Of a stretch of 48,898 nucleotides of DNA, positions 17,834 to 48,898 are shown piece by piece. Under the pieces are notes generated by a model, which saw only the letters and a list, made by a program, of their open reading frames with translations, made no database searches and had not been told where the DNA came from. Positions within the stretch are counted from its first letter, which is position 1. Every line of letters begins with the position of its first letter. The position numbers were made by a program, and so were the translations under genes. The DNA lies in assembly GCA_046545955.1 (NCBI GenBank), contig JBKGYS010000003.1:1-48898 (forward strand), read 5' to 3'. The stretch is from Spirochaetales bacterium (lineage in GTDB: Bacteria > Spirochaetota > Spirochaetia > DSM-27196 > SKKC01).

Positions 17834-17917
17834 ACGGTTCCTTCGCTGTGTGGCCGAAGCTGCGGCGCAGGGCGGCTGCCGCCGACGCAGCCGTCCCCGC
17901 AAGGGCTCGGAACGCGC

Positions 17918-22496: not shown

Positions 22497-23237
22497 CTAC
22501 CGCGACTCGATCGGCCTCTGATCGAGTTTGTTCAAGTACGCGACGTCGAGCCCCGAGTAGTCGATCCACGGCTCGATGTCGGGCCCCTCCTCCTCGGTTG
22601 TCAGCCACATCCGTTCATCGTCGGTGGGATCGAAGAGAATGTAGAAGGAATCGAGGACTCCAAAGGTCTCAGCCTTAATGACTCCATCGGAGATCTCCTC
22701 GACAATGTACGCGCCCTGAGCGATGTCTACGATCGGCACGTCCTCGTGGAGGATGAAAAGATCAAGGGATGGGGCATACGGCACTTCCACAATGGTGAGC
22801 CGGCCACCACTGAAGTCCCACTCGCCTACGATCGTATCCATGACAGCGGTTTCTTCCACTCGGCGGTATATGGCGATTGGAAAGCCATGTGTGTCCGCGT
22901 CTCGTATAAGAAGCTTTTCACCATCATCCTGTAATTCGAAATGACTTCTGTAGTCGATTCCGACACTTGTGGTTGCCGTCTCCGATGATGGGCTAAGCAG
23001 AATTTCGGTCCATCTCGGAGGCCGATCACCACCAATCTCCCAAAAAATGTCTTCACCTTCGGGAACCTCTATTTTTCTGAACTCGGCCCCTTCGGGTTCA
23101 TGCAACTGCTGAGTCCAGTCGTGTACGAGCGGTAACCACCAGGTATCGAATAGTTTTTCGTACTCCTGAGCGGAGGCAATTCCTGCGACCGCCATCAACG
23201 TGCCCAGCGACAAAACGACCAGTATTCTTCTGCTCAT
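22497..23237 (-). CDS. Secreted acidic hypothetical protein; candidate cognate immunity protein
   Basis: Sec signal MSRRILVVLSLGTLMAVAGIASA; RBS overlaps the giant gene's stop (TAAGGAGA, 10-nt gap); GC about 47% in two 60-nt samples; immunity role is inference. Confidence 0.7.
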   Translation of the reverse strand: MSRRILVVLSLGTLMAVAGIASAQEYEKLFDTWWLPLVHDWTQQLHEPEGAEFRKIEVPEGEDIFWEIGGDRPPRWTEILLSPSSETATTSVGIDYRSHFELQDDGEKLLIRDADTHGFPIAIYRRVEETAVMDTIVGEWDFSGGRLTIVEVPYAPSLDLFILHEDVPIVDIAQGAYIVEEISDGVIKAETFGVLDSFYILFDPTDDERMWLTTEEEGPDIEPWIDYSGLDVAYLNKLDQRPIESR

Positions 23238-23247
23238 GCGTTTCTCC

Positions 23248-26200
23248 TTACCACCAGCTGTCGAGTCCGAGTTGAGACCAGTACGGCTCCTCCGGCTCGA
23301 CCCTGTTCACTTGAATCAGATCCATCCGCTGAATCTCGTCAAAAGCCCGCCTGCTACGGCCGATATACTCGCTGTAACTTCCGGGCGCTGCACGTCTGCC
23401 GTCCCAGGGATTGGCCGTGGAAACATAACCCGAGAGAACGTCTCGACTTGTCTCCGGTCCGGTTACGGTTTCTATTTCGTTTATCACTTCCGAGTGAACT
23501 CCGTTCGGATATACGTCTCTCATTTCCTCGTCAGGATGCGCGATTCGGAGGTACCCGAAGTACTCGCTTTCATCGTGATGGGTACGCGAGAGTTCGGTGT
23601 ACTGAGGATCGTATATGCTTTCGATATGATCGAATTCGATATCGTCACCGGTGAAGCTGTTCAGAGCCGAAACGATATTCTCTATCGACAGAAGCGTCCC
23701 CTGCCCTCGACTGTTGCGGCTGTAGTAGCCGTTATCCCGCATTGCCTCGTTGAGCTCGATCGGGTTGCGGGTCTGCCCGGTGGCCTTATTGACCATGTAG
23801 CCTATCGAATACAGCGCGCAGCCGTACGTCCACACATCGATTTTCTGCTGGGGTTGATAGTCGTAACGACTGATTCCGTTCTCATGCTCTTCGATCAACA
23901 TTTCTGAAAACTCCCGGTACTCCAGCGGATCTTCTCCCTTCTCATTCAGATATCCCTCATACAGCGTCCTCCTATGCGCCTCGTTGTACTCGTCAATTTC
24001 CTGTTGATCCGGACCGTCGAGCAGGGCAACGGTAAGTACTTCCCGCATGCTCCAGTCGTTCTGGTACATGCCTTCGGAGCTTACGCGGGCAAAAAAGTCG
24101 TCTTGCTCCGCTCCGTATCCGACTCGTGCGTAACGGTTGAATACATCGAGCTGCCCCACTTGCCTCGCGGCTTCGTAGAGCGAGTATTCGCTTCGAATAA
24201 AATCGTCCGAAAGTAGCTGCCGCTCGTATCCGTCGACGATCATTCGATCGGCCATGCGCATGCGGGACAATACGGACGCCTGCGTTTCAGCGACATTTTC
24301 CGAGCTTGTCACTACCGTACTGTCGGAGCGTCGCTCGCCTACCCGATATCCGTCGCGCAGCGCTTCATGCTGCATGGTCAGACCGGCGACTAATCTGCCG
24401 GACAGGTTGTCGGCCCCGCGGTCTCCGAGCGTCCGCATATTCACCGTTAACCGGCCGTCGCCGACGGCCGAGGCAAATGCCTTATGAAGATCCTCTTCGT
24501 GAAAGTCATCTTTATACCCGACGCGAAGTAGTGCATTACCACGCAAAAGGTCATCGCGCAGACCATCGCCCTTTTTGTCACCGTAGCTGTAGAGCGTGCG
24601 AAGCGCCGTGGCGGCGTGTGACGTCCCGGTATGCGCCTCGGCTACATCCGCCGCGCCGAACAGGTCGTAACCGCGCATTCGTTGCTGCTCAAAGAATGTG
24701 CCCATGCCGCCGGCGATATCCGACATCCGAAAAGCGCTTGTATCGATGCCACCGCGACCGAGCGTTATTTCCGCACCGCCTTCACCGAGGTGGACCTCGG
24801 CAAGTCCGGCGGAATTCCAATCCCTGCCGGCAAGCGCACCGATGTCGCGCAGGTTTGCGACGTTCACTACCGTCTCGCCGGTCATGCCGTACTCGAGCCC
24901 GGCCCGCGCACCGCTTCCGACTGCACCGCCGACGGCTCGAACGTCGCCCCGGTGTACACGCGAAAACCCTTCGACGGTGCCGCCGGCAAGCGCTCCGACA
25001 GCCTCGCCGCCGTACCCGGCGAGCGCACGGTCACCGAGGCTTGCATCGAGGAACGATTCGGTCGAGAAGCCGAGCCCGCGTACGTCGTCGATCTGTACCG
25101 CATGAACCGCGCCGCTTCCCGCGTTTGATACCGCCGCGGCGGTCAAATTTCCGGCCATACTACCAAGCATAGTCTCGGCGCCGATGGTTCCTCCGACCGC
25201 GTTTGCGGCGAAACCGGAGACATGGTTCACACCAGCGGCGGCACCCGCCTGCATTGTACCGAGCAATGCCTGTTCGGCGGTACCGTCACCGCTCGCCATG
25301 TCAAGCGCGCCCCACGCGGCCGCATTTCCAACACTCAGGGCAAGGCTCGCCCCGCCGCTCATAAACGCTCCGGCGACTCCTACACCCACGTCGGCAACCT
25401 GACGGATCGTCGGGGCGTATTCACCCTGCCATAGCGGAGTGTTGTGAAGGCCCTCGGCAAGTTCCGAGAAGCCTGCCGCCTGCATTGCCTGGAAGTAACT
25501 GAACTCGCCCATAAGCCGGTGCATCTGCCCGCTTCCACGAAAGAGCACGCTGCGACGCCAGCTTCGGTCAAAGTCGATATCCGGGCGAAGCTGGGGTGCG
25601 TATCCTACGTGTTCACCGAAAAGTCCCGGCTGCTCCACTGCATCCGCGTTCCGCAGAACGGTATGATCACCTTCGCCGACGTCGAATGTCCGCGCAAACC
25701 ATCCCCGCTCGATATCTATCTTCGCGTTTTCGCCGGCTTCGGCGACGGTCTTTGCCTCAGCGTCCGACTCGCCGAAAACCGATTCGAGCTCGCCCTCGAG
25801 CTCGGCCACAGCCGCGTCGAGCTGCGCCTCGATTCCCCGGCCGCTCATGCGGCTTAACGTGGTCGAGCTCAGGTCGGTCTCGACGTCAAAACTGTAGTCG
25901 TCGAAGTGGCGGTAGCGGCGTACCCTGTGATGCTCGCGAATTGCGCCATTGAGCACGGTATCACCTACAAGGGTATCGCGCTGATAGCTCGAACCCGAGA
26001 TCATCCATCCCGCGCCGGTATAGGTGCGGTCCACATTCGCCTCTACCGATTCATTTGCCTGTCGGACCCGCCGTCTCATCTTTTCGGCGATCTGCACAAA
26101 GCGCTCCCGCGCCCGCTCGGCGCTGACCAGGCTCACCGCCCGCTCGATCTCCGCGCTGTCGGCGGTTCGCGCCGCACGGATGCGGTGCAGCACCTCGCCT

Positions 26201-29200
26201 TCGGTAAAGCGATCCGCGCCCAGGGTGGTAAGAAGATTGGGCTTGGCACGCGCTATTGAGGCATTCACCGCCCGCCCGCGCTTTAGAAGACCCGCAAAGT
26301 TGAATCCCCCAAGCGCCTCGGCTACAAGCTCATCCGTATCGATTCCGGCGGTATCGAGGCTACCGATATGTACGCTTTCGAGCTCAGCGATCGCCTCTTC
26401 GGCGCTCGCCCCTATTGACTCGAGCGCCACCGCGCTTCCTACCTCTGCGGCGGACTCGGCCGAGCGCTCGACCCATTCAGCCCGCTTCTCGGGCAACGAC
26501 ATATATTGCCCTTCCCAGCGCCCGAGTTTCTCCTCGTATGCCGATTCGGTTCGATCGAGCCACCGATCCCTCGAGTCGTTCATCTCTCGCTCACTTTTAT
26601 TCCATCCGCGTAGGCCTCGATTCCCGATTGCCTCCATGGTCGACTCCCACTCCCCGCGACGCGTGGAAAGGTCTCTGCGATACGAGTCGAACTCGTTTTC
26701 TCGATGCTCGGTGTACGACTCGAACCGACCATCGACCAACTGCGTGAGATCCTCAGCGAGGGCACGCGTACGGCGGTGGTCGAACTCGGCGAGCCTCGGG
26801 CTTGCGAGTGTATCGAAACGCTCGAAGGAATCGTTCCGCAGGGCGAGCATCGCGCGCCGGTGTTCGCGCCGCGAAAACAGCGTTTCTCCGTAGGCGGCAT
26901 TAATACGTTCGGTAAGTTCTGAGCGATGCCCCTCGCTCTGAGCAATGTCGAGCCATTCGACAGCCTGTTCACGGTATGCCGCCGCCGAAGCGTTGTTCGC
27001 ATCGTGCAACTCGAGCGCCTCGGTTTCTACCGCTGTTCGGGCGTGAGAAACCCGGCGCGAGACTTCGACATGGGTCGAAGCGATAAACGAAGCCGTCGAA
27101 CCTCGTTCGTTGTCGTCAAGCGTCGCATCATACGCCCCAAAGAGCTCGTGCACTCCGACGTTCACATCTTCGAAGCGCGGGTCGCCGAGATATTCGTCGA
27201 GATTCTCTCCGGTGGCCTCAGCGGCTAAATCGAGGCTTTCGGCAAACTCAGATAGCCCCATACCGCCCTCACGGTCCTCGTCGTGTCCGCGAAGCTCTGC
27301 GAGGCGTTCGCGCTGCCTGACCAGCTCCGCGTACGCGCTTCGGTAGTCACCGGCGGCAGCTTCCAGTTGTATTCGAGCACCGCTCGCCCGCGTGCGCGTC
27401 GCGCGGCTGTTCCGGTTGGCGTCCGAGCGTATCTCGGTAACGCGCCTGGCGTTATCGCTGTGTCCCGCAGCGGTCACATAGAGCAAAGCAGCGGAGCGAA
27501 AAAACGCCGACGCGGGTGGCCAAGGCAGCGTCGCAATCCCTGCGACAGTCGCCTGTCGGGCCCGTCGCCTGTCCCGCGATGCTGCGTTTCTATGTCGACG
27601 TCTCTCCGAAGACAGCCTTCGAAGAATGTAGCGGTACATCTCCGCTTCACCGGTATCGCGCAGAATACCCTCCGCGGTATTCCCTCGAGCGCTGCCTAAC
27701 CGGTGCATACCCGCATAATAGTCAAAGAGCCTGCGAGAGTGCGTGTCGCCCATAACCCGCTCGTACGCATCCTCGCTCTCTTCGCGAATAAACGTAGCGT
27801 ATTCAATCTCTCTTCTGAGTAGTCCGCTTCCTTCGAGAAAATCGGCTACTCCTGCACTGAGCATATCCCGAGGGCGTCTTGCGGCGGTGTCGAGCACACC
27901 CTTCAACGCCGAGAGCTCGCTCCATCGGCCAACAATATCCTCGTAGCCGGATAGTCCGAGATGACTTTGTAGCGCTGAGCCGTATTCCGACCAGATATAC
28001 TTCTCAAGACCGTGCTCCTGCTCGGCAAATCTCGGATGAGTAGCGCGCCATGTATTCGCATCTTTGTCGCGAAACGAATCGGACAGAACCGAGTGCAGCC
28101 GTCGGTCACGGTGGTACATCGCAAGTCCCCAGTCGTTTAGAATCGAACCCCCGCGAAGGTCGATGAGATCTGCCACCCCAAGCAGCCACTCGTGGCGATC
28201 TTGCTCGAAGTCGCTCCTGTCCGGATCGTCGGCCGCTCGCGGTCCGGTACGACCGGGTTCTACGTATTGCTCCAGATCGGAGTTCCCGCTCGGATCAAGA
28301 CGAACAGAAAAACTCGGAAACGCTCCACCTCTGCCGGGCTCGAAGCTAAGAAACTCGGACCATTCGCTATCGATGCCGTTCACGAGCGGCGCAATCTCTG
28401 CGGATAGTATTGTATTCGCCTCGTCGAAGCGCTCGGCCACAATTTGTTCCTGTTGCGAAAGCGCTTCGGAAAAGAGAGCCTGGAGCGCTTCGACCGAGAG
28501 TCGGTCGGAGTATCCTCGTCGGTAGGACTCGAACGCGTCCTGATACCCGGTGTACTGCGGATGTGTTTCCATATCGATGGTTCGTGGATCTTCCACGCCG
28601 TGCTCGTGCAGGCTTTCGAGCGCGTTCGTAGCGGCGGTTGCGTTTTCCGATCGATTGCGCGCGGTTTCGAGTCGGTCGATCGGGTCGACCGGTCCGGTTT
28701 CCTCTCCGAGCTCAGCTTCCATTGACCCTCCACCGTCGGACCCGATATACCCGCTTGAGGCGTACTCGAACACCGCCTCGGCGCGGCGGAGCTCGGCCTG
28801 GGCTTGTTCAACTCCCTCGTTTCGTTCGGCAAGCAGGTCGCTCGCCGCCTGATAGGCCTCGTTAGAGTGCTCGAATGCGTCGATCGCGTCGGACAACTCC
28901 GAGTCGAGCTCGACGATCTCTTCTTCGGTGGATTCAATCGCACGTTCCAGCGGCTCGATCGCCGCGGTCAACTCCGCGCCTGCGTTGTTCCTGGCGCTGC
29001 GGATACCCCTGCCTACAACCGCTATCTCACGTTCGATCCGCGTTGCGCGAGAACGAATACGCGCGAGCGTTTCGGCGCGGCTGTCCGCCTCTATTTCAGT
29101 TGCTCGCCGCACCGACCGCCTGATGTCGCTATCGGCAATAGAATCGACGGCGCGATCGAGTAACGAAAACTCCTCGAGATCGCTGAAGTACTCCTGGAAG

Positions 29201-32200
29201 CCGGCCCCGGGCGCTTCACCGTCTTGTGCGTGCTCGCGCGACGTATTGAGTATCTGCCTGCTGTCCGCGTACATCTGCGAAATACGCCGTGAGGCGCGTG
29301 CGTAGTTGTTTCGCCGCGCGACCCGCTCCTGACCTTGCCAGTTCGTGCTCCGCGGGGAGGCGGCAAGGACAAAGTCGCCTTTGCTACCAGCCGAATCCAG
29401 CCCGGACGTGGCAATCTCCCACCCCGTCCAGTCCTCGGGCAGATACGCGGTATCGTTGAAAGAACGCGAGGCGAACACATCCGACTCGTAGCGGTCGGCG
29501 CTGTCGGCCAGACCTTCCAGGAGTACCTGCTCGGAAGAAGCCGCCTCGAAAGCTTCCTGAGTCTCGGCGTGCTGCAACCCAAGTCGCCGCTCGACCACCA
29601 GGATTCCCGAGGCGACCAGCGTCTCTACGGCCTGCCGCTCAAAGTCGAGAACCTCGTCTACGCCGCCGCTATGTCCGCTGCCGAGAACATAGTCGCCTAT
29701 CAACCACGGTCCATCGCCGTCCAGCGCCGCGGCAATGCGCATTGCTTCGGACAGATCAGAACCCCGTTCGTCGGCGAACCGTCCTTTGCCACCGTCAAGC
29801 CATCCCGCGTATCCGTACGCGATCTCCTGGACGGCCCGCGCTCGCGCTCCGTCTTCGTGGACGAGCTCATCAGCGCTCTCGCCCGCACGCCCGGATTGTA
29901 TCGCATTGAAAGCCGTGCCGAGGTCGCTTCCGGCAAAGAGCTCTCCGTCGCGATCGTGAATGTCCACCCCAGCGTGCCCGAGCTCGAGCAACTCTTCGAG
30001 CCTCAACGCGGCCTCCTCGCCGAGTGAACCGACGAGACCGGAGCGTGCCGCACGCCGATAGGGATCGACGAGATCATAACCGAGTTTTTCGCGTTCAGCC
30101 AACGTGGTAACGGCATCGGCTATACCGAGACTCTCGGCGATTCGATTACTCAGCGTCGAATTGTCTTCTACGTCCTCGGCGGTAAGAACGCCGACATAAC
30201 GTTCTGCGCGGTCGAGCGAATCTAGCTGTTCCTCGTCCATTTCGTACACGTCGCTGAGAAACGCCTCGCGTGGACTCGGGTATTCATTCGCGTTACCGGC
30301 GCCTTCGGCGGCGGCTCGAACACGCTCGATGTACTCAGCCATGAACCCGAACCGCCGTGAATCATACCCCGCGCCGCTGCCCTCCCACAGTCTCCCGCGC
30401 GCCGCAGGGTCGGAGAGCAGCTGCTCGGACGCTCGTCGGATCCGTCCCCCATACTCGAGCTCACCGTCGAGTAACTCCGATAGACGCTCGCGACGCTGCG
30501 CCCCGGCATCGGAAAAAACCTCCTCGACTACCGCGGCGGTGTCGATTGACGCCAAGCGAGACTCACCGAGGGAGTCGAGTTCGCGGCTAAGCGCTTCGAG
30601 CAGATCGAGCTCTGCAAGCTCTCCGAAGCCCTCGACCGTCATCTCGCCTGCCTGCGGCGCCGAGAGAATCGAAGAGATCTCGGGTGCAAGAGCTCCCACT
30701 ATCTCGCCATCGGTTGCGCTGAACGATCGCGACCCTTCGTCTACCGCCGCTATCAACTCGACCCAGAGCGAATCGACGAACGCTGCGACCGAGCGTGTTT
30801 CGAGCGCGTCGACGCCGAAATGCTTCGCCGCGTTAGCGCGGTACTCCGTCTCGAACGGAAGTTCGAGCGCACCATCCGGATCATCTCTTTCGTTGGGATC
30901 GTCGAGCATCGACTCGAACCAGCCGACTTGTTCCGCAACGAAACGGAGGGCATCCGCGTATCCGGCGAAGTCGGACTGATCGAATGGCTGTGTTGCGACG
31001 CTGTTGCGGGCCAGCTCGACGCTCTGGACGCCGTTGTCAAGCGCGGCTGCTTCAAGCCAGTCGAGAGACGCGAACACATCCGCCCGCGCTGCCGATCCGT
31101 CGAAAAAGCGAGCGGCGGTCCACGCTTCGAAATGCTCAGGCGCCGGCGCCGGATCGTCGCTCGAAAGCGATGCGTGGCTCACGAACTCCTCAATCAGTGT
31201 CACCGCCCCGCGCTCGACCGAGGCGAAAGACTCGAGGACCGCCTCGGGAGGAACCGCCTCCCATAACGACAGGGTAGCGAACCGTCGCTCGAGCGCTCCG
31301 AGCGACTGCCATTCGATTTCATTAGCGTCGATGAAGCGCAACCGTGCCAATTCGAGCCGATTCACCGCTCGTTCGGCGAAGCGCCGGGAGTACGAATCGA
31401 TCAGCGACTCGCCTCCCATACCGGTGAGCAGTCGCTCGACCTCCTCGAGCGCCGCATTGTAAAGGGACTCGGGATCGGGAAAGTCCTCTCCATATCGGTG
31501 CGAGAGTTGCGATGCAGTAGACGTTGCGACACTCGAGGCGAGTAACGACACCGCCTCGTCGAATTGCTCCACACGGGCGGAATCGCCGCGCCACAATTTC
31601 ACCGCGTCGACAAGACGTGATCGAGCCGAGCGCCTTTCATCCGCGATCGTCGATCTGGTTGATTCCACGTTCGCAAGTTGTTCGCTCAGGCTTTCAACCT
31701 TGCCTGCCACCGTCTCGGCCTCGGCGGCGTATTCGGTCGACGAAGCGCTTGTCGCACGCTCAGCGATAGTCAAAGAAACCGCCTCATCGAGCCAGAGCGA
31801 CAATTCCGCACGCATTGTCTCGTCAAGCCCCGGCGCCGCGGAGGAAAACGCCCGTGCGGTTTCGCTTCGCCAACGGCTTACTTCCGAGAGTGACATGGTC
31901 GACAACACGGCGGAAACGCGGTCCGGCGAAACAAGCTCAATACCCCCGTGTTCGTTGAGTCCACGCAGGAGCCGAGCCTCTGCGATCGCCCCGGTAAGAC
32001 TCTCGAGTGAGGTCTCCGATCGAAGCGCGGCAACAGCCGGCGCTCCATCCCGATGGTGTTCGACCGCCGTGCGAAGCGCCTGCAGGTCCGCGAGCTCGCG
32101 GCGGTCGTCCTCAGCCACCGACCGGGAAACGTCGTCGTAGTTACCAACGAATACACTCGAGCCTGTGAAGAACCGCGAGGCGTACTCTTCGCGCTCGACG

Positions 32201-35475: not shown

Positions 35476-35616
35476 CCTGACCTCCTATTCATTCCGACGA
35501 GGTATTGCTTCTCACTATTACCTACGCCCGGTCGGTACGCGGCGATTTCAACTTTTTTAAAAATTTTTGCAATCGGTACGGTCAAAACAGCGGTATTGAC
35601 TCGTGCCGGAGGATTT
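35476..35616. promoter_or_regulatory. Divergent promoter region between the giant gene and the export operon
   Basis: 141-bp gap with RBS on both sides, AT core TTTTTTAAAAATTTTT (35553-35568) flanked by TCGGTACG direct repeats (35532, 35573); -35/-10 pairs not resolved. Confidence 0.55.
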
Positions 35617-36360: not shown

Positions 36361-36977
36361 GGGGCACTACAGCGTTCGGGCTGCGTTCGCGGGTAGTCGG
36401 TTGCGTAGCCGCTGCGTGTCTCGCCGCCGGTTGCACGAGCGTACATCGTTCCGACGTAAGCGCGCTCGCAGACGACCGGCTGCGGGTATTCGCAGAAGCC
36501 GGCGCGGCGGACGCTTCGGTTACCATTCGACATATCGATGCAAGCGTAGAAAGCGATCATCTCGCCGCGGCGCCTGCGTACGACCCGCGTCTGCTCGCGC
36601 ATATGGCGGTGCACGAGGCCGCCGGTGGACGCCTTCGAATACACACGGCCTCGAGGCACGATCCACCCGAGCGTTCCCGGCCGAGGTCCGAAGTGCAGTC
36701 CGATCCTGCTGAGGACTCCCCGGGAGCATTCTCTCTCACCGTCGATGTGCGCGAACAAAGCTTTTTGCGCGGTATTCACGAGCGGCGTGCTATTACCGCG
36801 GTCGCCGAACTCGTAGCCTCCGGCGAGAACGCCGCGCGCGGCGCCGCCTTCGCCCGGGCGGTATACCGGGCGGACCATTCCGACACGGTTATTTCTCCGG
36901 GCGTCTACTATCGGGTTGTTTCCGAAACCGTTGAAGCGCTCTTCGGCGCGATCGAACAGCGCTTGGAGGAAGAGTAA
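36357..36977 (+). CDS. Hypothetical lipoprotein
   Basis: GTGA overlap with TPR stop; lipobox LAAGC; stop abuts the TolC start. Confidence 0.7.
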   Translation: MRGTTAFGLRSRVVGCVAAACLAAGCTSVHRSDVSALADDRLRVFAEAGAADASVTIRHIDASVESDHLAAAPAYDPRLLAHMAVHEAAGGRLRIHTASRHDPPERSRPRSEVQSDPAEDSPGAFSLTVDVREQSFLRGIHERRAITAVAELVASGENAARGAAFARAVYRADHSDTVISPGVYYRVVSETVEALFGAIEQRLEEE

Positions 36978-39835: not shown

Positions 39836-41300
39836 CAAGCCTTGTCTCAGGGCAATGTCTCGCCTTCAGCCGCTCCCGCCTGTAGTAGCCGCGCTTGTCT
39901 TGGTCGTCTCGTGCGACCTGGTCGACCTTCACCGACTCGAAGTGCAAACCACCCCCGCCTCCGCACACGAGGTTGTTGGTGCCGATTCGGCGATTCGCGC
40001 AACATTCTCCCGGCCGGTTAACGAGGAAACGGTTGAAAGGGCGTTTCTTCTCGAAACCGCTACAGAGGAGATCGAGGTCGATTTTGACTGGTCGCAGGAG
40101 GGATTCCGAGCGACGCCCGTTGAGACTCCGAAGCCGGGTGTACCGTACAGGCTGCAACTCGACGGATCGATCGTCGACGAGCGTGGCCTCGATCACGACG
40201 TTGATATATACGTACCGTTTTTCTTCGGAAACGATTCACCACGCCCGAACCTTCAACGGAGCACACCGTCTGCGGGTGGCGACATAGGCGTATTCGACCC
40301 GGTTCGCCTTGTCTTCAGCATTCCGGTCGACCGCGGTCGATTCGAGGATACGATTGCCGTCACTCCGGATACAGAGTTCGATGTTTCGTGGCACAGCAAA
40401 GACACAGTAGTAGAGATCACACCTTCCCGGCAGTGGGAACCGCTAACGGTGTATCGCTGGTCGATATCAAACGATACGGTATCGAAGGACGGGGTACCGA
40501 TCGCCTCGGCAGCCTCGGGGTCGTTTTTTACGCAGTATGACGCCACGAGTCCCAACCTCACCGAATACCGTTTTGCGAGAATCGACGAGGGAATTGCCGT
40601 TGAGACGGACGCGCTCCAGGCAGACGGAGTGGTGCTTCTCGAGTTCTCCGAGGCGGTTCGCTTCGAGTCAGTGCGAAGAGCTCTCACGGTTGCACCCGGC
40701 GTTCGCTCGGCCGTAGAACAGAAGACTGATCGGGAGTTTCTCGTTCGATTCGACGAGGAGCTCCGCGGGGGACAGTTGTACGAGATTTCGATCTCCGATG
40801 AGCTGCGCGACCTCTCGGGCAATCGCCCGACCGGAGATCAGAGCTTCACCGTAGAGCCGGTTTCAAATCGACAGCTCGTCTCGCGAATCCGAAGCTTCTG
40901 GGCAACCGCTTCGGGCGATGGAGTGGTCAACCTGGAGCTGGATGCCGGAGCGAGCGGTTCGACCGAGGCAGGACTTGGTTCACCCGACGGAACAAATACG
41001 CTTCAGTTCGAGTTCGATATTCCCTACGAGTCGAAGGCCGCCCGCGACCGTCTCATCGAGGCGGTAGAGCTGCGCGCGCTACTACCCGACCGTGCGGTGA
41101 ACCCGGACGTAGAACAGGTGCGCTGGCTCGATGGAGGGGCCCGGCTGCGTATGTCGTTCGCCGGATTGATCCCGTCCGACTCGGTTGAGCAACCATCGAT
41201 CTATCGTCTTCGCCTCGCAGCCGGAAGCTCGAGCGCCCCGGATCGTGCGAGCGGGCTCGAGCGGTCGCTTATCGTATATATCCGTACGGAGGTCGAATAG
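39822..41300 (+). CDS. Ig-like (Big_5/SbsA-type) repeat lipoprotein
   Basis: Lipobox LVVSC (start may be ATG 39855); repeated I.ATFSRPVN..TVERAF, LVFSIPVD, LEFSEAV, Y.I.IS..LRDLSGN modules. Confidence 0.75.
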   Translation: MCNNSKPCLRAMSRLQPLPPVVAALVLVVSCDLVDLHRLEVQTTPASAHEVVGADSAIRATFSRPVNEETVERAFLLETATEEIEVDFDWSQEGFRATPVETPKPGVPYRLQLDGSIVDERGLDHDVDIYVPFFFGNDSPRPNLQRSTPSAGGDIGVFDPVRLVFSIPVDRGRFEDTIAVTPDTEFDVSWHSKDTVVEITPSRQWEPLTVYRWSISNDTVSKDGVPIASAASGSFFTQYDATSPNLTEYRFARIDEGIAVETDALQADGVVLLEFSEAVRFESVRRALTVAPGVRSAVEQKTDREFLVRFDEELRGGQLYEISISDELRDLSGNRPTGDQSFTVEPVSNRQLVSRIRSFWATASGDGVVNLELDAGASGSTEAGLGSPDGTNTLQFEFDIPYESKAARDRLIEAVELRALLPDRAVNPDVEQVRWLDGGARLRMSFAGLIPSDSVEQPSIYRLRLAAGSSSAPDRASGLERSLIVYIRTEVE

Positions 41301-42931
41301 TGTCGCCTACAGCCTTTTTTCGGTGCAGGATAGCTTCTGCAATGGTATCGGGAGTGTGCCGGGCGAGCGCTCGGAAAGTGGCACTACCGTTAACGCTGAT
41401 GCTGACCGCCCTGTTCGCTGGTTGTAGATTGACGAACATGGAACCGCTGGAGGTCGTCGGATGGTCGCCGCAAGACCGGCGAGTGACGGAAGCCGGGGAC
41501 ATCGAGGCGATTCTCGTGGAGTTCTCGTCAGATGCGGACCAAACTCGCACCGAACGCGCGTTCACGCTTACCGAGGACGACACAGCGCTTACCGGTCGGT
41601 TCTCATGGGAAGAACGCACCATGCGTTTCGTTCCCGATCTGCCGATCGAGAGTGGACGCGACTACCGGATAACGATTACCGGCGATGCTCAGGATGTGCA
41701 TGGCAACGCACTCGGACAGGACTTCGAGCACGTATTCACCACACGCGTATCCGACACTCGGCCTACCTTAGTTAAAAGCATTCCGCACAACGACGCGATT
41801 CTACCGGTCGAAGGAGCCGCGATTACGCTCGATTTCGGTGAACAGGTCGATCGCGCGAGTTTCTACGAGGCATTAGATATTTCTCCGTCGATCTTGTTCT
41901 CCGTCTCATGGAATGATTCCGACAGTACCGCAACCGTTCACACCATGGAGACGCTGACACAACAACAAGAGTACACCGTGCGCCTCGACACCCGGCTTGA
42001 GAACATCGACGGGAACACACTCGCCGAGGCGGTCGAGCTTAGCTTTCACGCGGAGCAGCCGGGAATAAAGCCGGCGCTTAATGCGGTGCGCGCATCGCAC
42101 GAACCGGCGCCTGATACATGGCGCGCCGATTATACCGACGAGCCGCTGACCGCGCGGCACTACTCCGCGGAAATCGGGGAGGCGTCGGTTCGTCCAACCG
42201 CAGAATGGGAGCGGTTCTGGGGACTTGCGCTCGAGTTCAATACACCGGTTCGTCGGCAGGACATAATTCGGGCAATAGAGTTCGACCCCGAAATCCCGTT
42301 CTCGGTTGTGCCTGAGTTTCAGTCGACCTCCGGGTTGTTCGAAATCCTCCCCGATGAACGCTTCGAGTACGATCGCGAGTACACTCTGCGCCTGGCCGGC
42401 GATATACGAACCGACCTCGGAGTTGAAACGCGAATCGACCGGTTTATCCGATTTCGCGTCGACGGGGCAGCCTCGCGACCGCCTGCGGTAGGGAGTGTTT
42501 TCTTCCTCGAAAACCCGAAGACCGAGAATGTGGTCGGACCGCTTCGCGACGACGACGAGCTTGATCTGTCCGAATACGGAGAAGGTGGAGATACGGGGTT
42601 CTTTGATCTGTACGTAACTCCCGGGACCGGAGCGCGCTTCGACCCGCTCGAACTCGCGAGCGCGTTCTCTTTCTCGGTGGACAATGTTGCCGCGGATTTT
42701 GAGCTCGTAAACGTGCTCGCAACCGACACAGGAGGCCAGACGAACCTGGAACCGCAACCCGCAGCGGAGCCGGCGAACGACGAAATGATTATCCGTGTAC
42801 ACGCGGTCATTGAAGATCTCGAAAACTCGGGAGTGATTACCGTTTCCATCGACGGCTCGGCGCGCGACTCGTACGATAACGCGCTCGGGCGGACGTGGCA
42901 GCGACGGCTGAATCAGGTGTCTTCACGGTGA
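41300..42931 (+). CDS. Ig-like (Big_5/SbsA-type) repeat lipoprotein
   Basis: Lipobox LFAGC (true start may be downstream); P..PIESGRDYRITITGDAQDVHGNAL...FTT, LDFGEQVD, YTVRLDTRLENIDGNTL, ARDSYDNAL. Confidence 0.78.
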   Translation: MSPTAFFRCRIASAMVSGVCRASARKVALPLTLMLTALFAGCRLTNMEPLEVVGWSPQDRRVTEAGDIEAILVEFSSDADQTRTERAFTLTEDDTALTGRFSWEERTMRFVPDLPIESGRDYRITITGDAQDVHGNALGQDFEHVFTTRVSDTRPTLVKSIPHNDAILPVEGAAITLDFGEQVDRASFYEALDISPSILFSVSWNDSDSTATVHTMETLTQQQEYTVRLDTRLENIDGNTLAEAVELSFHAEQPGIKPALNAVRASHEPAPDTWRADYTDEPLTARHYSAEIGEASVRPTAEWERFWGLALEFNTPVRRQDIIRAIEFDPEIPFSVVPEFQSTSGLFEILPDERFEYDREYTLRLAGDIRTDLGVETRIDRFIRFRVDGAASRPPAVGSVFFLENPKTENVVGPLRDDDELDLSEYGEGGDTGFFDLYVTPGTGARFDPLELASAFSFSVDNVAADFELVNVLATDTGGQTNLEPQPAAEPANDEMIIRVHAVIEDLENSGVITVSIDGSARDSYDNALGRTWQRRLNQVSSR

Positions 42932-45900
42932 AGCGTCTAATCGCCGGCGTCCTTCGCAGACCGATCGGCACCGTATCTGTCGCGATCGCAGTGGTGACCG
43001 CGGGCGTAGCCGGAATGGCGTCTTCGAGCGTTTCGCTTCTTCCGGCGATTGATGTTCCGGTCATCACCGTCGGCGCCGAGTACGACGGATTACCGGCAGA
43101 GCAGATGCGCGAGCTCGTTACGCTACCGCTCGAACGCGGATTATCGGGAATAGCGGGACTACGGGGAATGCAGAGCACGACGCGTGCGGGGACTGTGGTA
43201 GTCCGGTTGAACTTCGACTGGGGAACCGAAAGCAACGAGGCGGCATCGGCGATTCGGGAAGCGGTCGACGCGCTCTACCCCTCTCTGCCGAATGCGGTAT
43301 CGCGACCGACGGTCCGACGCGTCGACCCTGCCGCGCGTCCCGCGATCCGGGTGGCGCTTCACCCGTCGGGAGCTTCCGCTGCGCGGGTCCGTCGTCTCGC
43401 CGAACGCGAAATACGCGCTGCCGTTCAACAGCTCCCCGGAGTCGGCTCGGTGGTGGTGAGCGGCGGCGGAGTTGAGGAAATCCATGTAACCGTAGATCAA
43501 ACGAAGGCCCAGGAGCGGAATCTTGACCTTATCACGATTCGAGAGGCACTGATCGAAGGAAACAGTGAGTACGCCGCCGGCTCGATGGTCGAGGGCGACC
43601 TGGAGCTGTTCGTCACTACCGACGCTCGCCTTGCATCGACTGAAGAGCTCGAGCGGGTTTTCATCGCCCGAGACGGGTCGACCGAGCCCGAGGTCGACAA
43701 TCGGACCGACCCCGTGGCGCTGTCGTCGCTCGCCCGAGTCGAACCAGGCTACGCGCCTCGCAACTCGGTATTTCACGTCGACGGCCGGGAGGCGATAGGT
43801 CTTGACATATACTCGATGGTCGACTCGAGTCCTGCCTCGGTAGCCGATCGGGTGAGTGCGGCTATTCCCGACCTGGAACGAAGCTTCGGTTCGTCGACTT
43901 CCTTCGAGGTCGTACACGACCAGTCACATTCGGTCCGCCTCGCGCTATCGGAAGTCTCAATTGCCGCCGGGCTCGGGACGGTTGCGGCCTTTCTCGTTTT
44001 AATCGTGTTTCTACGCTCGTGGCAAGGGGCTACAATCGTGGCACTTTCAATCCCGACCTCAATCGGGTTTTCCTTCGCCCTCCTCGCAGTCTTCGGCGTT
44101 GATCTCAATGTAATGTCCCTCGCAGGACTAGCTATCGGCATCGGGATGGTAGTCGACAACAGCATCGTCGTCGTCGAAAACATGCACGAATACGCCCGCG
44201 GTGAAACACTCGATGCAGCACGTTCGACAGCCGCTGTAGTAGAGGTGTCGAGCGCGACCCTGTCCGGCACTTTGACCACCATCGCGGTCTTTTTACCGCT
44301 TTACGCGTTACCCGGCGTAGCAGGGCTCCTATACCGGGATCTTGCTACCGCCGTCGTAAGCGCGTTGGTCGCAAGCTATCTTACGTCGATCACCATAACT
44401 CCGTTACTCTACACCCGTTTCGCACGCTCTCGGAGCGACGCAGCAGGGGGTGCAAAGCAGCACACGGAGAAATTGTCCGGCACGGCGCCACGGTCCTGTC
44501 CGGCCTCCAATTCCAGGCTCGACCGCGTATATCGCTCGCTCCTGTGCGCGTGCCTACGACGACCTGCGACCTGCGCTACCGCGGCCGCCGCGGTCACGAT
44601 CCTTACCTCGCTCGCGTTCGGTGGCCGCGTACATACCATGGCGGTCGAACCGGTCGATCAAGGCGAGGTTGAAATTTCGTTACGTGTTCCCGTTGACTAC
44701 TCGGTGGAGGCGTCGGCGCGGCAGAGCGCGTACATAGCCGAAATGCTCGGTAAACTTCACGGGGTACAACGGGCTGTCTCACGCGTCGGAGGTGAGAAGG
44801 ACGACCCCTGGTTCCTCTCCGATCCGTTCAGCAGCCCGAATACTGCACGGATACACCTGATTCTCGATCGACAAGTTTCGGCTCATCTTCTCGTCGACCG
44901 GTTAACAGCCCGTCTCGAAGCCTTGAATATGGACGCGACCGTAGCACTTCCCGAGAGCACGGTAGCACAACTGCTTCGCTTCAACGGCGGCGAGGGTGTC
45001 GCAGTGTACGGTGAGTCGCCTGCTATATCACTCGCTCGCGCAGAACGAGTGGTCGCAGAGGCCGAGGCCGGATTCGAAGCCAGGCGGCCGTTGTCGCTCG
45101 TGCCGGTCGAACGTCGACAAAGCATCCTCGCAACCCCTAATCGCGCGGTGATCGACAAGCGCGGCATTTCTATCACCGACGCTTCAGTACTTCTTCGTTC
45201 GACCGTCGAAGGTGCGAAAGCCGGATCGCTCGTTCGCGATGGAGAGAAGTTCGACATACGACTCTTTTACGGTGACACACAACAGCGCCAAGAGCTGGGT
45301 TCGACCTTGCTTATCGGGGGTGTCCCGTTGCACGAAGCTCTTCACATGCAACAGCGGAGCGGGCGTTCGGTGCTTTCGAGACGTTCAAGGCGCGACGTGA
45401 TCTACATAAAGGGGGCTCAAAATCGGATCGACACCACAGGCCGGCCCTGGATGGAAGATCTCGGAAGAACAACCATCGACGGATTAGCGAGATCGCTGCT
45501 TCCTGTCTTTGCCCTCGCAGTTCTCACGATAGCAGCGATTCTTATTCTGCAGTTCGAGAGTCTCGGGCAGGCGGCGCTGGTGCTCTCGGTACTTCCGTTC
45601 GCGCTTATCGGCTCGGTAGTCGGGGTAGCGGCAGTCGAGCGACCCCTAACGATGCAGAGCGCGATCGGCAGCCTGGTCCTTATCGGAATGGTAGTAAATG
45701 GTGCAATCATGCTTATACAGACCTGGAATCAGGGGCACGATTGCATCAGGCACTCTCGCGGGAGCCGACGAAGCGTTACCGGGCAAATCTCGACGTTACG
45801 CGCAAGCGTTGTCCGCGGGGCTCTCCGGCGACTTCGGCCCATACTTATGACCAACGGCACAACGATCGCCGCAATGGTGCCGCTTCTAATCGACCCAGGT

Positions 45901-46080
45901 ATTCGTTCGCATCAGAGTGGACTCGCGGTGGCCATTGTCTCCGGACTGCTCGTCGGAACCGTGGTAACGCTCTTCGTCCTCCCCCCATGTTATTTCGCAA
46001 TCGGAACGCGAGTAATCGTCCGTAACGGGCAAACACACGCGGGCATCGACGCGACGCGCAAGACCGATGCGCAAGAATAG
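42928..46080 (+). CDS. RND transporter permease subunit 1 (AcrB-like, divergent)
   Basis: Start reassigned to GTG 42928 (GTGA overlap); LLPAIDVP, VTLPLERGL, TM4 GMVVDNSIVVVEN, ILQFES, GMVVNGAIML, RLRPILMT. Confidence 0.9.
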   Translation: MKRLIAGVLRRPIGTVSVAIAVVTAGVAGMASSSVSLLPAIDVPVITVGAEYDGLPAEQMRELVTLPLERGLSGIAGLRGMQSTTRAGTVVVRLNFDWGTESNEAASAIREAVDALYPSLPNAVSRPTVRRVDPAARPAIRVALHPSGASAARVRRLAEREIRAAVQQLPGVGSVVVSGGGVEEIHVTVDQTKAQERNLDLITIREALIEGNSEYAAGSMVEGDLELFVTTDARLASTEELERVFIARDGSTEPEVDNRTDPVALSSLARVEPGYAPRNSVFHVDGREAIGLDIYSMVDSSPASVADRVSAAIPDLERSFGSSTSFEVVHDQSHSVRLALSEVSIAAGLGTVAAFLVLIVFLRSWQGATIVALSIPTSIGFSFALLAVFGVDLNVMSLAGLAIGIGMVVDNSIVVVENMHEYARGETLDAARSTAAVVEVSSATLSGTLTTIAVFLPLYALPGVAGLLYRDLATAVVSALVASYLTSITITPLLYTRFARSRSDAAGGAKQHTEKLSGTAPRSCPASNSRLDRVYRSLLCACLRRPATCATAAAAVTILTSLAFGGRVHTMAVEPVDQGEVEISLRVPVDYSVEASARQSAYIAEMLGKLHGVQRAVSRVGGEKDDPWFLSDPFSSPNTARIHLILDRQVSAHLLVDRLTARLEALNMDATVALPESTVAQLLRFNGGEGVAVYGESPAISLARAERVVAEAEAGFEARRPLSLVPVERRQSILATPNRAVIDKRGISITDASVLLRSTVEGAKAGSLVRDGEKFDIRLFYGDTQQRQELGSTLLIGGVPLHEALHMQQRSGRSVLSRRSRRDVIYIKGAQNRIDTTGRPWMEDLGRTTIDGLARSLLPVFALAVLTIAAILILQFESLGQAALVLSVLPFALIGSVVGVAAVERPLTMQSAIGSLVLIGMVVNGAIMLIQTWNQGHDCIRHSRGSRRSVTGQISTLRASVVRGALRRLRPILMTNGTTIAAMVPLLIDPGIRSHQSGLAVAIVSGLLVGTVVTLFVLPPCYFAIGTRVIVRNGQTHAGIDATRKTDAQE

Positions 46081-48898
46081 CGCCGGCTCGCGGGCATTTC
46101 GGAGTCGCGTTGTGCTTGCCCTTTTAATAACAGCTGCGTTGCTTCTTTCAATGGACCTCCAATTCGGAGCCCAGCCGCCGGATGGTTCGCGAGTCGTATC
46201 GGTAATAATTCGTCACGAGGGTGTCGAGCCCCGGGAGCTCGAGCGACTCATAACAGACCCGCTCGAAAGACACCTCTCCGGAACACCAGGTATCGAAGCG
46301 ATTCGAAGCGGCACGGAAGCTGGTCGTGTGAGAGTAGGCGTATCTGTCAGGCACAATGAGTCGGTTGACGACGTCTACGACGAGATACGCGACAAGGTCG
46401 AAGTGCTCTACGAACAACTACCCGATGCGGTCCAGCGTCCGCGGATTGTTCGTGGAGATACCGAAACACTCCCGGTTGCCGTACTCTCGGTGAAGCAGGC
46501 TGGACGATCGCTCGGTGAGATTCGGCGACTCGCCGAGGACGAGCTTCGGCGAGAGCTCGAACGCATACCCGGGGTCGGGGAGGTAAGGGTTAGCGGCGGA
46601 TCGATCGAGGAGGTACATATCGATGTTAACCCCTCCATCCTGGCCTCGACGGCGATCGACTGGCGAGATCTCTCGCAACGAATGAACGACCGGCACGCGG
46701 TACGAAGTGCAGGCGTGTTTCGTAGCGACGCGAACGCGTTCCCGGTATTACTGGATTCACGACTCGATAGCTACGAACGGTTACACAATATCGAAATGGG
46801 CGCGGGCACGGGCACCATGCCCCTCGGGCGCATTGCGTCGATTCGCGCCGGCGAACGCAAGCCACGGACAATAAGCAGAATAGACGGCGACCAGGCGATT
46901 CTCCTCAGCGTGACTGCCGCCTCCGAGGCGAATATCATCTCCATGGCGGGACGGATCGAGGTTCTTCGGAATCAATGGACGCGCGAGCGAGGAATCATCA
47001 CGGAGGTGCTCGCCGACACCGGAGGCGACGCTCGCTCCGCGGTCGGGCGTACCCTCGCTGCACTTACGGCGTCCCTCCTATCGGTCCTCATAGTGGTCGC
47101 CGTTGGCTCGGGCTCGCCCTCGCGTGCTATCGAAACCGCGCTTGTAATTCCGACCGCTGTGCTCTTCGCTGCGGCCACTTTCGCATGGTTGGAAATACCG
47201 CTTGACGCCCCGATGCTCGCGGGCTTCGCGGTCTCCTCCGGCCTGATAGTCGACACAGCAATTGTACTGAATAGAGGAGGCGGGCGCACCACCAGCTACG
47301 CGGTGGCTACCTCGGTTGTGACCACCGTTGCTTCGCTTCTGCCCTTCCTGTTCTTCCCCGACATTTTCGGAAGCGCTACGGGTATCGCCGCTGCCTCGGC
47401 TGTGCTTGTCGCCATTTCTTTCCCTGTGGCGCTTCTCGTGCGCGCATGCCGTTTTTTTTCCGACGTCAGCTATCCGCCTTTCGCGATTCCCCGGCGTCTT
47501 TCGAGTCTCTCGCTGCGGCATCCGGTGCTCGCGCTCACCACGGCCGTCGTTGTCGTAATTCTCACCGCTGTTTTCGCATTCCGCGCCGGCTCGAGCCCGA
47601 GCGCCGTGACATCCGCGAAAGCACTGAGGATTCACGTCGAGTTCGAAAGCGGCGCATCGGTGCAATCGGTCGACCGGCGCTCGGCAAAGATCGCAGCGCG
47701 CTTGGGGAAGCTTGACGCTGTCAAACGTATTGAGTACGTCGCACGGCGAGACAACGCCACCATCGCGATCGAACCGGCAGGAACAAAGGCGTCCGGCCAG
47801 ATTACCCGCGCCGTCGAAAGGCTCGACGCCGAAGCAGCCGATGCAACGCTTCGGATGCTTTTGCCACCGGGCAGCTCGCAGGGGATCACGCCGGTCGAGC
47901 TTGCTGTCACGGGTCCTGATCGCGAACAAACGAGAGAGCTCGCAACGTCGCTTGCCGGAATCCTTACAGAACAACAGACCGACATCGAAGCCGACGATAG
48001 AACCCTTTCGGGAAGGAATCGGGCCGAATCGGTCGTTCTCCATTTCAAGGAGGATCCACCTGCACTCGTGATAGAACCGGATCGCGAACGGCTCGCTCGC
48101 TCGGGGCTTTCCGTCCGTTCGATAGGCGACACGGTTCGCTGGGCACTTCATGGTCCGGTTGTACTCAAATGGCAAACCGGAGCCGACGAGCTGGATGTGC
48201 GTTTAAGGGCTCGACGGGAACAAATGACTACGCGCAGCGACCTCGAATCACTGTTGATCCGAAGCGGGAACTCGTCGTCGGTTCGGCTTCATTCGGTGGC
48301 ACGCATCGGCTCTACCGAACGTCCTGCAAGAATCGACCGCTATAATCGGCAGCGCGCCTCCTTCATTACCGCTATGTATCCGATCCGAAGTATCGAAGGG
48401 ACAATGGAGACGCTAAACGCAAAGCTCGAGTCGCATCCAATGCCGCCGGGGTACGCCGTGCAGGTAGACCTCCGATATCGGCAACTCATCGGGCGCTACA
48501 GACTGCTTTGGGGCCTCCTTGCCGTAACCGCCATTGCTATCGTGCTGCTGGTAGCCGCAGCGTCTGAATCGTTGCGGGTAGCGGCAGCCACCCTGCTTTT
48601 CATACCACCGACGGTCTCCCTTACGATTCTGCCGTTTCTGATACATGCAGCTCCTCTCCACTTAGGAACTGTAGTCGGTGCGGTAATATTCATCGGCATC
48701 GCGGTGAACAATTCTGTTCTGATCGGCTTTCACGCCGTGGGAACGACGGTGGAACTCGCAATACACAAGCGGGCGCCGGATCTCCTGCTCGCCGGATTTA
48801 CCACATTGCTCGCAGCGGTTCCCCTGCTCCTGTTGACCTGGGAAACGCCCGGGACCGAAGTCGCGAACCGGATCGCCCGCGTACTGGCAAGTGGGACG
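46067..48898 (+). CDS. RND transporter permease subunit 2 (highly divergent; partial, runs off window)
   Basis: Not in ORF track (no stop in window). Hand translation from ATG 46067: MRKNSAG..EGVEPRELERLITDPLERHLSG..LPDAVQRPRI; TM4 GLIVDTAIVL; TM10 GIAVNNSVLI; ends IARVLASGT; start, middle and end are in the same frame (944 codons). Confidence 0.85.
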   Translation, partial: MRKNSAGSRAFRSRVVLALLITAALLLSMDLQFGAQPPDGSRVVSVIIRHEGVEPRELERLITDPLERHLSGTPGIEAIRSGTEAGRVRVGVSVRHNESVDDVYDEIRDKVEVLYEQLPDAVQRPRIVRGDTETLPVAVLSVKQAGRSLGEIRRLAEDELRRELERIPGVGEVRVSGGSIEEVHIDVNPSILASTAIDWRDLSQRMNDRHAVRSAGVFRSDANAFPVLLDSRLDSYERLHNIEMGAGTGTMPLGRIASIRAGERKPRTISRIDGDQAILLSVTAASEANIISMAGRIEVLRNQWTRERGIITEVLADTGGDARSAVGRTLAALTASLLSVLIVVAVGSGSPSRAIETALVIPTAVLFAAATFAWLEIPLDAPMLAGFAVSSGLIVDTAIVLNRGGGRTTSYAVATSVVTTVASLLPFLFFPDIFGSATGIAAASAVLVAISFPVALLVRACRFFSDVSYPPFAIPRRLSSLSLRHPVLALTTAVVVVILTAVFAFRAGSSPSAVTSAKALRIHVEFESGASVQSVDRRSAKIAARLGKLDAVKRIEYVARRDNATIAIEPAGTKASGQITRAVERLDAEAADATLRMLLPPGSSQGITPVELAVTGPDREQTRELATSLAGILTEQQTDIEADDRTLSGRNRAESVVLHFKEDPPALVIEPDRERLARSGLSVRSIGDTVRWALHGPVVLKWQTGADELDVRLRARREQMTTRSDLESLLIRSGNSSSVRLHSVARIGSTERPARIDRYNRQRASFITAMYPIRSIEGTMETLNAKLESHPMPPGYAVQVDLRYRQLIGRYRLLWGLLAVTAIAIVLLVAAASESLRVAAATLLFIPPTVSLTILPFLIHAAPLHLGTVVGAVIFIGIAVNNSVLIGFHAVGTTVELAIHKRAPDLLLAGFTTLLAAVPLLLLTWETPGTEVANRIARVLASGT

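Follow-up and report, generated by a model that had tools for sequence, protein, structure and literature searches.

We describe a locus on contig JBKGYS010000003.1 of a Spirochaetales bacterium (GenBank assembly GCA_046545955.1), in which a gene for a giant secreted protein of 4,075 amino acids (aa) lies next to a divergently oriented operon encoding the parts of an efflux-like envelope machine. The 48,898-bp stretch that was analyzed, referred to below as the window, is the entire contig of an 80%-complete metagenome-assembled genome (MAG). We put at about even the chances that this locus represents a spirochete-specific polymorphic toxin system with a dedicated envelope machine, composed of an outer membrane efflux protein (OEP), a membrane fusion protein (MFP), two Ig-like lipoproteins, and two resistance-nodulation-division (RND) permeases, RND1 and RND2, and that this module is coupled to the giant protein, most likely threading or anchoring it. 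A genomic search with alignment A2 found four closely related loci, and relatives were then compared in a sample of 99 genomes at the level of the order and in one of 401 genomes from the phylum (individual genomes are designated by handles, such as G001).

The giant (positions 23248 to 35475, minus strand; 4,075 aa from a TTG start or 4,074 aa from an ATG one codon downstream) is acidic and has no match in Pfam or NCBIfam, and an NCBIfam scan of the module-adjacent giants of two relatives (G212 and G407) likewise returned nothing. Comparison with the 2,600- to 3,950-aa giants of five related genomes divides the protein into four parts, namely, a signal peptide with an N-terminal domain (N-domain), a helical middle, a core, and a tail. 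The helical middle is poorly conserved, and the tails are unrelated between some genomes; among the giants of six genomes, the N-domain and the core are common to all and the C-terminal tips are unrelated. Hydropathy analysis recovers just two hydrophobic stretches, one at the N terminus and the other in a Gly-rich region (approximately residues 3363 to 3383). The first belongs to a Sec-type signal peptide spanning residues 1 to 38 (35362 to 35475, minus strand; ...AVHA/SP), which, like the other signal peptides and the five lipoboxes reported here, was read by eye from the translation. A signal-like N terminus is present in every full-length relative that was read.

The N-domain (residues 61 to 480; 34036 to 35295, minus strand) is helical and rich in spaced Trp residues, and an alignment of nine giants (A8) shows E169, D188, W260, W289, and W303 to be invariant. 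It is present in 87 of the 401 genomes of the phylum sample, almost always inside open reading frames (ORFs) of 2,000 to 4,600 aa, and is a candidate for the domain by which the giant is recognized by the module or anchored. Residues 214 to 445 (34141 to 34836, minus strand) weakly match phrog_22272 (E value of 2.6e-9), a PHROG without assigned function whose profile runs to 4,080 positions; apparently, a similar giant is already on record as a phage-associated protein. Residues 2806 to 3019 (26419 to 27060, minus strand), just before and at the start of the core, repeat part of the N-domain; this second copy was recovered in all 20 giants compared by a local iterated profile, a small set for which the E values are unreliable.

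The conserved core (residues 2930 to 3760; 24196 to 26688, minus strand; alignment A1) includes the Gly-rich hydrophobic stretch at approximately residues 3360 to 3560. Searched against 1.84 billion proteins, its profile retrieves 888 representative clusters, of which 376 reach E values of ≤1e-30; lengths of 2,000 to 4,170 aa predominate among the 150 clusters listed, and of 10 clusters that were looked up, two carry names, both "hypothetical protein" from Spirochaetaceae or Spirochaetales MAGs. The structural model of the core (predicted local distance difference test [pLDDT] of 70.3) has no fold match in the PDB (best Foldseek E value of 1.1); VIA-align returned only helical-bundle matches (Z scores of ≤6.2), and the Atlas matches, including a DUF637 cluster at 0.86, all score below 0.9 and serve as leads only.

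At the border between the core and the variable tip lies the motif HEALRDG (residues 3703 to 3709; 24349 to 24369, minus strand). In a comparison of 26 sequences, in which the motif reads HEAxRDG, the H, E, R, and G show little or no variation. The surroundings of the motif (24340 to 24640, minus strand) align weakly to a predicted zincin-like metalloprotease, with a Z score of 5.1 that is within noise, and a role for HEAxRDG in self-processing is at this point just an idea.

Beyond this border, the giants diverge. By their last 330 residues, 28 toxin ORFs sort into 11 tip classes, which cut across families, and Peptidase_M23 is detected above its cutoff in 5 of 20 tails scanned, with weak matches in 4 more. 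The tip of the window giant (23251 to 24348, minus strand) consists of a helical linker and a candidate papain-like (clan CA) Cys/His peptidase domain, as judged from six homologous tips, a structural model, and Foldseek. In these six tips (those of the source giant and of G001, three from the genus g3, and one from an orphan ORF of G054), the motifs YGC, HS, and NP are invariant, corresponding in tail numbering to Cys183, His291, and Asn319. The first two are Cys3886 of the full protein (23818 to 23820, minus strand), which is its single cysteine, and His3994 (23494 to 23496, minus strand). In the model (pLDDT of 61.7), the Cys starts a helix (residues 178 to 196) and the His lies on a strand (residues 291 to 302). 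Its best Foldseek matches are papain-like peptidases, including staphopain, and are weak (E value of 5e-3; TM scores of 0.25 to 0.47); the top rows also include a papain-like toxin/immunity pair and a CdiA-CT, at E values of 5e-3 or weaker. No standalone relatives of 138 to 441 aa were found for the last 252 aa of the tip. With the window tip apparently papain-like and M23 domains in many relatives, the tip is most likely a cell wall-cleaving antibacterial effector.

Related genomes also contain tips that are detached from a full-length giant. Of the three giants encoded by the complete genome G054, two have shorter, 5'-truncated ORFs behind them, whose similarity is confined to the 3' part of the core; G017 carries six such truncated tip ORFs in an array, and others occur in G015 and G420. 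None is located inside the window. These cassette ORFs lack a signal peptide start, and most of those in the G017 array are followed by an ORF for a secreted protein or a lipoprotein. The array itself (L038-L039; G017:C1:1008001-1048000) has near-identical upstream stretches and a transposase-like ORF at its end. In G054, identity between two orphan cassettes is 99% across the 200 aa leading up to HEAxRDG, 69% over the next 120, and 28% beyond, and the motif therefore behaves in the manner of the border motifs of CdiA and Rhs toxins. Full-length giants and Big_5 (Ig-like) genes are both missing from G017, and the complete genomes G015 and G017 hold only truncated cassettes and insertion sequence elements, with no Big_5 gene. 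More broadly, six genomes have the core without the N-domain: in five of them (G015, G017, G332, G414, and G426), there are only short ORFs among the matches listed, and the match in the sixth (G168) is a fragment on a short contig.

M23, papain-like, or unassigned tips sit on a shared core. Polymorphic toxin systems, in the sense of Zhang et al. 2012 (PMC3482391), have a conserved N-terminal body, C-terminal toxin domains that differ among homologues, orphan toxin cassettes close to the full-length gene, and a cognate immunity gene directly downstream. As far as sequence comparison goes, the variable tips, the border motif, and the orphan cassettes together are a polymorphic toxin architecture. 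An earlier sequence-only reading of the window had viewed the giant as a polymorphic toxin-like protein with a Sec-type signal peptide, and both views agree with what the relatives reveal; its further link to the long Leptospira proteins of TIGR04388 was not upheld, in that neither the giant nor anything else in the source genome matches this model (45-bit cutoff).

Ten base pairs separate the stop codon of the giant from the start of a small gene on the same strand (22497 to 23237, minus strand; 246 aa), whose product has an N-terminal signal-like sequence and is a candidate immunity protein for the tip. It has no match in Pfam, NCBIfam, or PHROGs and falls into just five clusters among 5.8 billion proteins (53 to 100% identical), comprising itself and four relatives at 53 to 64%. 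A 55%-identical copy occurs at the same place in G001, alongside the same tip class. Behind most toxin ORFs in the loci read, orphan cassettes included, comes an ORF whose product has a signal peptide or a lipobox. Ten such downstream ORFs that were scanned belong to diverse Pfam families (WG repeats, leucine-rich repeats, SH3, and TPR) or to none. Predictions of the complex between the tip (tail residues 120 to 372) and the mature small protein scored 0.02, 0.37, and 0.01 (mark, 0.32), which is evidence neither way. From its position, signal peptide, and narrow distribution, the small gene likely encodes a periplasmic immunity protein.

The giant is accompanied by the module across the phylum. 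In the order-level sample, the core (A1) occurs in 32 of the 99 genomes and the first Ig-like lipoprotein (Ig1) in 24, with both present in 21, and the two are neighbors in all 12 genomes, representing four families, in which they lie on one contig. Local tBLASTn searches place OEP-MFP-Ig-Ig-RND-RND adjoining the giant, with, in genus g3, an ORF without assignment ahead of the MFP gene. In the phylum sample, the core was detected in 32 of the 401 genomes, the N-domain in 87, and a profile of the Ig pair in 195, including 83 at E values of ≤1e-30. An Ig match is present in 83 of the 87 N-domain genomes, and the N-domain is present in 70 of the 83 genomes with a strong Ig match (E value of ≤1e-30). 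Among the matches listed, distances cover 69 of the 87 N-domain genomes: the N-domain and Ig genes are 1.4 to 16 kb apart in 39 of the 41 genomes in which they share a contig and are distant (92 and 362 kb) in the other two, whereas they occupy separate contigs in 27, and the place of the Ig gene is unlisted in one.

Gene order and orientation vary among lineages, with the Ig genes before or after those of the RNDs and the giant either divergent from the module or codirectional and downstream of RND2; this variation therefore points to selection on linkage rather than to inherited synteny. In genus g33, the core, the N-domain, and the Ig pair co-occur in the same 8 of 24 genomes, and in G054, G309, and G415, one module is accompanied by several giants (up to three). 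Insofar as gene neighborhoods can establish it, the conserved linkage shows that the module is functionally coupled to the giant.

The two permeases of the module stand apart from ordinary pumps. RND1 (42895 to 46080, plus strand) is a divergent AcrB-type permease that scores 499.9 bits to PF00873 (ACR_tran), and RND2 (46067 to 48898, plus strand), whose gene is truncated by the contig end, is very divergent, scoring 279.4 bits, versus 630 to 838 bits for 19 of 20 other RNDs from six genomes; a long-branch RND of G015 scores 500 bits. An internal contrast is offered by a second, ordinary OEP-MFP-RND operon within the window (8625 to 14193, plus strand), the RND of which scores 838.6 bits and which is also kept beside the corresponding region in G001. 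A quick maximum-likelihood tree was built from 54 RNDs (17 RND1s, 17 RND2s, and 20 others, with no named reference pumps). In it, all 17 RND2s fall on one side of a branch with support of 100, the 17 RND1s cluster together with the long-branch G015 RND (support of 83 to 86), and 19 of the 20 other RNDs form a clade of their own (support of 99), with the module RNDs outside it. The RND1 and RND2 lineages have matching subgroupings, as expected for an old pair that would have been inherited together. The Asp of transmembrane helix 4 (TM4) is kept in all 17 RND1s (VVDNS in the window) and in 13 of the 17 RND2s, including that of the window; RND1 therefore looks energized and RND2 looks sometimes to be a passive partner. 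The best matches among solved structures are to drug pumps (MdtB, AcrB, and MexK among them); for RND1, the match to MdtB (E value of 5.8e-58) is one of many similar ones, the best being 4.2e-60. Both the co-occurrence of module and giant across the Spirochaetota and the separation of the RND pair from ordinary pumps, as envisaged from the sequence alone, thus find support in these samples, the latter within a tree that lacks named references.

The remaining parts of the module precede the RND genes in the same operon, where PF00873, PF16576, and PF02321, the families of a tripartite RND pump, co-occur, all above their Pfam cutoffs. The OEP (36978 to 38456, plus strand) is a TolC-like protein matching PF02321 at 92.5 bits. 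The MFP (38453 to 39835, plus strand), a 460-aa lipoprotein (lipobox ALAC), matches PF16576 (HlyD_D23) at 90.4 bits, as well as PF13437. The two Ig-like lipoproteins both match PF13205 (Big_5), the first (39822 to 41300, plus strand; lipobox VVSC) at 89.2 bits over three stretches and the second (41300 to 42931, plus strand; lipobox FAGC) at 91.8 bits; the Atlas clusters of the first are mostly from Spirochaetota. Two further lipoproteins head the operon and appear to be genus-level additions to the module, since among the genomic contexts read, homologues occur in G001 only: one with TPR families in Pfam (35596 to 36360, plus strand; lipobox VAGC) and another of 206 aa without a Pfam family (36357 to 36977, plus strand; lipobox AAGC), which is 39% identical to its G001 copy. 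All eight genes overlap by 1 to 37 bp or abut, the successive junctions being -4, 0, -4, -14, -1, -37, and -14 bp.

The gene set and coordinates that had been read from the sequence alone (the giant, the small gene, a 141-bp spacer, and the eight-gene operon) agree with the ORFs and the Pfam matches, and the statement that no ATP-binding cassette (ABC) ATPase, TpsB, or type VI secretion system (T6SS) gene belongs to the operon holds in the Pfam scans, which place an ABC ATPase, in an ABC-2/GldG cluster, at 16229 to 21305. The divergent intergenic region (35476 to 35616) measures 141 bp up to an ATG of the TPR gene at 35617 (120 bp if a TTG at 35596 is used), and a search over positions 35300 to 35800 for sigma-70-like promoters or terminators found no site.

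Taken as a working model, the giant, comprising an N-domain, a long acidic helical stalk, the Gly-rich core, the HEAxRDG border, and an exchangeable enzyme tip, would reach the periplasm by the Sec pathway, as its signal peptide suggests. The module would capture it there, the N-domain and the Ig lipoproteins being the likely points of contact, and would thread or anchor it through the OEP channel, a step that we infer from gene linkage. Proton-motive energy would come from RND1, and RND2 would be its degenerate partner; both Ig lipoproteins may serve as guides in the periplasm. The Gly-rich core might then help to cross the target envelope, after which the tip would cut the cell wall of the target, and the small periplasmic protein would protect the producer. 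On the grounds of gene linkage, export of the giant by the module is a good hypothesis. Its fullest form, to which we assign somewhat less than even chances, is that of a new, phylum-specific protein secretion system, in which a heteromeric RND pair powered by protons works with an MFP, a TolC-like channel, and two Ig-fold lipoproteins to move Sec-delivered polymorphic toxins of 2,000 to 4,600 aa across the outer membrane, to be released or displayed for contact-dependent delivery of cell wall hydrolase tips into neighbors.

Several points weigh against this model. Related genomes are nonindependent, so the linkage counts overstate the number of separate events; 13 of the 83 strong-Ig genomes, all of them draft assemblies, have no detected N-domain giant; and some giants lie far from the module (362 kb in G372, 92 kb in G159, on another large contig in G413, and two of the three in G054). 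Confidence in the model of the tip is modest, the fold matches that it gives are weak (E value of 5e-3), and papain-like enzymes act on many substrates. In genus g3, the same tip class (32 to 33% identity) precedes an unrelated MsrB-like secreted gene; these genes (L020:4290-4958, L044:7760-8428, and L017:10409-11077) encode signal peptide proteins, and their likeness to MsrB was read by eye from a motif. The TM4 Asp is missing from RND2 in 4 of the 17 loci. A passage route through the module for a protein of more than 4,000 aa is hard to account for, and export, surface exposure, toxicity, and immunity are all proposals made from sequence. In addition, the part of a review of tripartite pumps available to us (PMC8277102) presents RND pumps as handling small molecules, and the sole protein cargo that it names for a two-step tripartite route is that of MacAB-TolC, peptides of up to about 10 kDa.

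The main rival retains the functional tie between module and giant and denies only that the module exports it. Under this alternative, which we hold to be possible if clearly less probable than the toxin system proposed above, the module moves small molecules or lipids or protects the envelope, and the giant is an accessory, either a periplasm-spanning or surface fiber docked on the OEP or MFP or a cargo freed by lysis or in vesicles. Linkage shows that a functional tie exists, not which way it runs, the RNDs are still pump-like in their PF00873 architecture, with the TM4 Asp in all RND1s, and the known RND substrates are small, at least in that portion of the review (PMC8277102). Yet the presence of up to three giants with one module (G054, G309, and G415) is a better fit to substrates than to a fixed structural partner, the module RNDs lie outside the clade of other RNDs in 17 of 17 loci read and come with two extra Ig lipoproteins, and the genomes that lack the module hold truncated cassettes only.

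We consider it improbable that the giant is instead a housekeeping scaffold for cell wall remodeling in the periplasm, with no role as a weapon, and that the downstream gene encodes an unrelated periplasmic protein. A signal peptide by itself brings a protein no farther than the periplasm, ordinary peptidoglycan hydrolases also include M23 and Cys peptidases, and the immunity role is a proposal drawn from context, with an MsrB-like gene as the next gene in g3. A housekeeping protein, however, is difficult to square with 11 tip classes that cut across families among 28 ORFs, with orphan 5'-truncated cassettes whose identity breaks sharply past HEAxRDG, or with a patchy, accessory distribution (one genus, 8 of 24 genomes; phylum sample, 87 of 401). 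Least credible, and already disfavored, is that an ordinary drug or metal efflux operon lies by chance beside an unrelated large adhesin or phage-derived, tape measure-like gene: all core parts of the module match standard efflux families, its best solved relatives are drug pumps, the combination of a long helical protein, Gly-rich stretches, and M23 domains is reminiscent of phage tape measure proteins, and the N-domain matches phrog_22272, but against this stand the adjacency in 39 of 41 same-contig genomes (among the matches listed) over many families and gene orders, the Ig match in 83 of 87 N-domain genomes, the position of the module RNDs outside the other-RND clade, and the outcome of searches for phage genes, in which no tape measure family was matched (the sole PHROG match of the giant is phrog_22272, of unassigned function) and no phage gene, structural or other, was detected in the window.

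The toxin system proposed here resembles several known systems in part. In the layout of the toxin, it resembles contact-dependent growth inhibition (CDI; CdiB/CdiA/CdiI, a type V secretion system [T5SS]), which also has a giant Sec-dependent exoprotein, a border motif ahead of a variable C-terminal toxin, a small gene directly after it, and orphan 5'-truncated cassettes with downstream genes of their own, here found in relatives. Unlike in CDI, Pfam scans of the giant and its neighbors detected no Omp85/TpsB gene, no repeat family of the two-partner secretion or hemagglutinin type, and no VENN motif, and the body of the giant is predicted to be helical and acidic, with OEP, MFP, Ig, and RND genes as its neighbors. 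These scans also detected no T6SS gene and no ABC gene of the type I secretion system (T1SS). With type I secretion (HlyBD-TolC), the locus shares the association of a very large protein with an MFP and a TolC-like channel, but its operon has no T1SS ABC transporter, and the giant starts with a signal peptide and matches no RTX family.

In the composition of the module, there are parallels to MdtABC-TolC and MuxABC-OpmB, which likewise combine tandem RND paralogues with one MFP and an outer membrane factor, MdtBC being described as a rare RND heterotrimer in the part of the review available to us (PMC8277102). They differ from the module in that the latter has two Big_5 lipoproteins in its operon and a linked giant secreted protein, and its RNDs have diverged much further (PF00873 scores of 500 and 279 bits, versus 630 to 838 for the other RNDs), with RND2 partly degenerate. 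A two-step route, Sec followed by a tripartite pump with a TolC-type channel, is exemplified by the export of enterotoxin STII through MacAB-TolC, which, according to the same portion (PMC8277102), is ABC driven and has cargo of up to about 10 kDa, as opposed to the RNDs and the giant of about 450 kDa here. The TIGR04388 (Lepto_longest) proteins are also very long and spirochetal. The window giant is unmatched by this model, and the module-adjacent 4,514-aa giant of G212 reaches 19 bits (N-terminal) against the 45-bit cutoff. In G212 (contig C1), TIGR04388 matches proteins of about 2,300 aa and several shorter ORFs, the latter at model positions 1333 to 1620 only; these short ORFs, confined to the C-terminal part of the model, hint at cassettes and suggest a second cassette-bearing giant family in this lineage.

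Elsewhere in the window, on the strand of the giant and downstream of a gene of the histone deacetylase family, are genes for an ABC ATPase, an ABC-2 permease, a GldG-like protein (ABC_transp_aux), and a DUF4340 protein (16229 to 21305, minus strand). This cluster is missing at the syntenic locus of G001 and is therefore no part of the system, and we rejected it as a partner. DNA nearly identical to positions 30001 to 40000 of the window was detected in three sequencing runs of one study (0.82 to 0.93 of the sampled words), labeled as hypersaline lake or microbial mat metagenomes, one of which may itself be the source sample. The matches listed include no RNA run.

The available portion of the polymorphic toxin survey (PMC3482391) lists trafficking by way of T2SS, T5SS, T6SS, T7SS (the type II, V, VI, and VII secretion systems), PVC, TcdB/TcaC, PrsW, and MuF, and the terms RND, TolC, and efflux have no occurrence in 300,000 characters of its text. 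A search of published full-text literature found no account of an RND-linked giant toxin. Spirochetes are not known for T6SS or CDI-type weapons. The giant family, with its 888 representative clusters, would give them a large and diversifying arsenal. If the module is in fact the exporter, it would constitute the first RND-powered route of protein secretion and would extend the two-step logic of tripartite machines from 10-kDa peptides to 450-kDa proteins.

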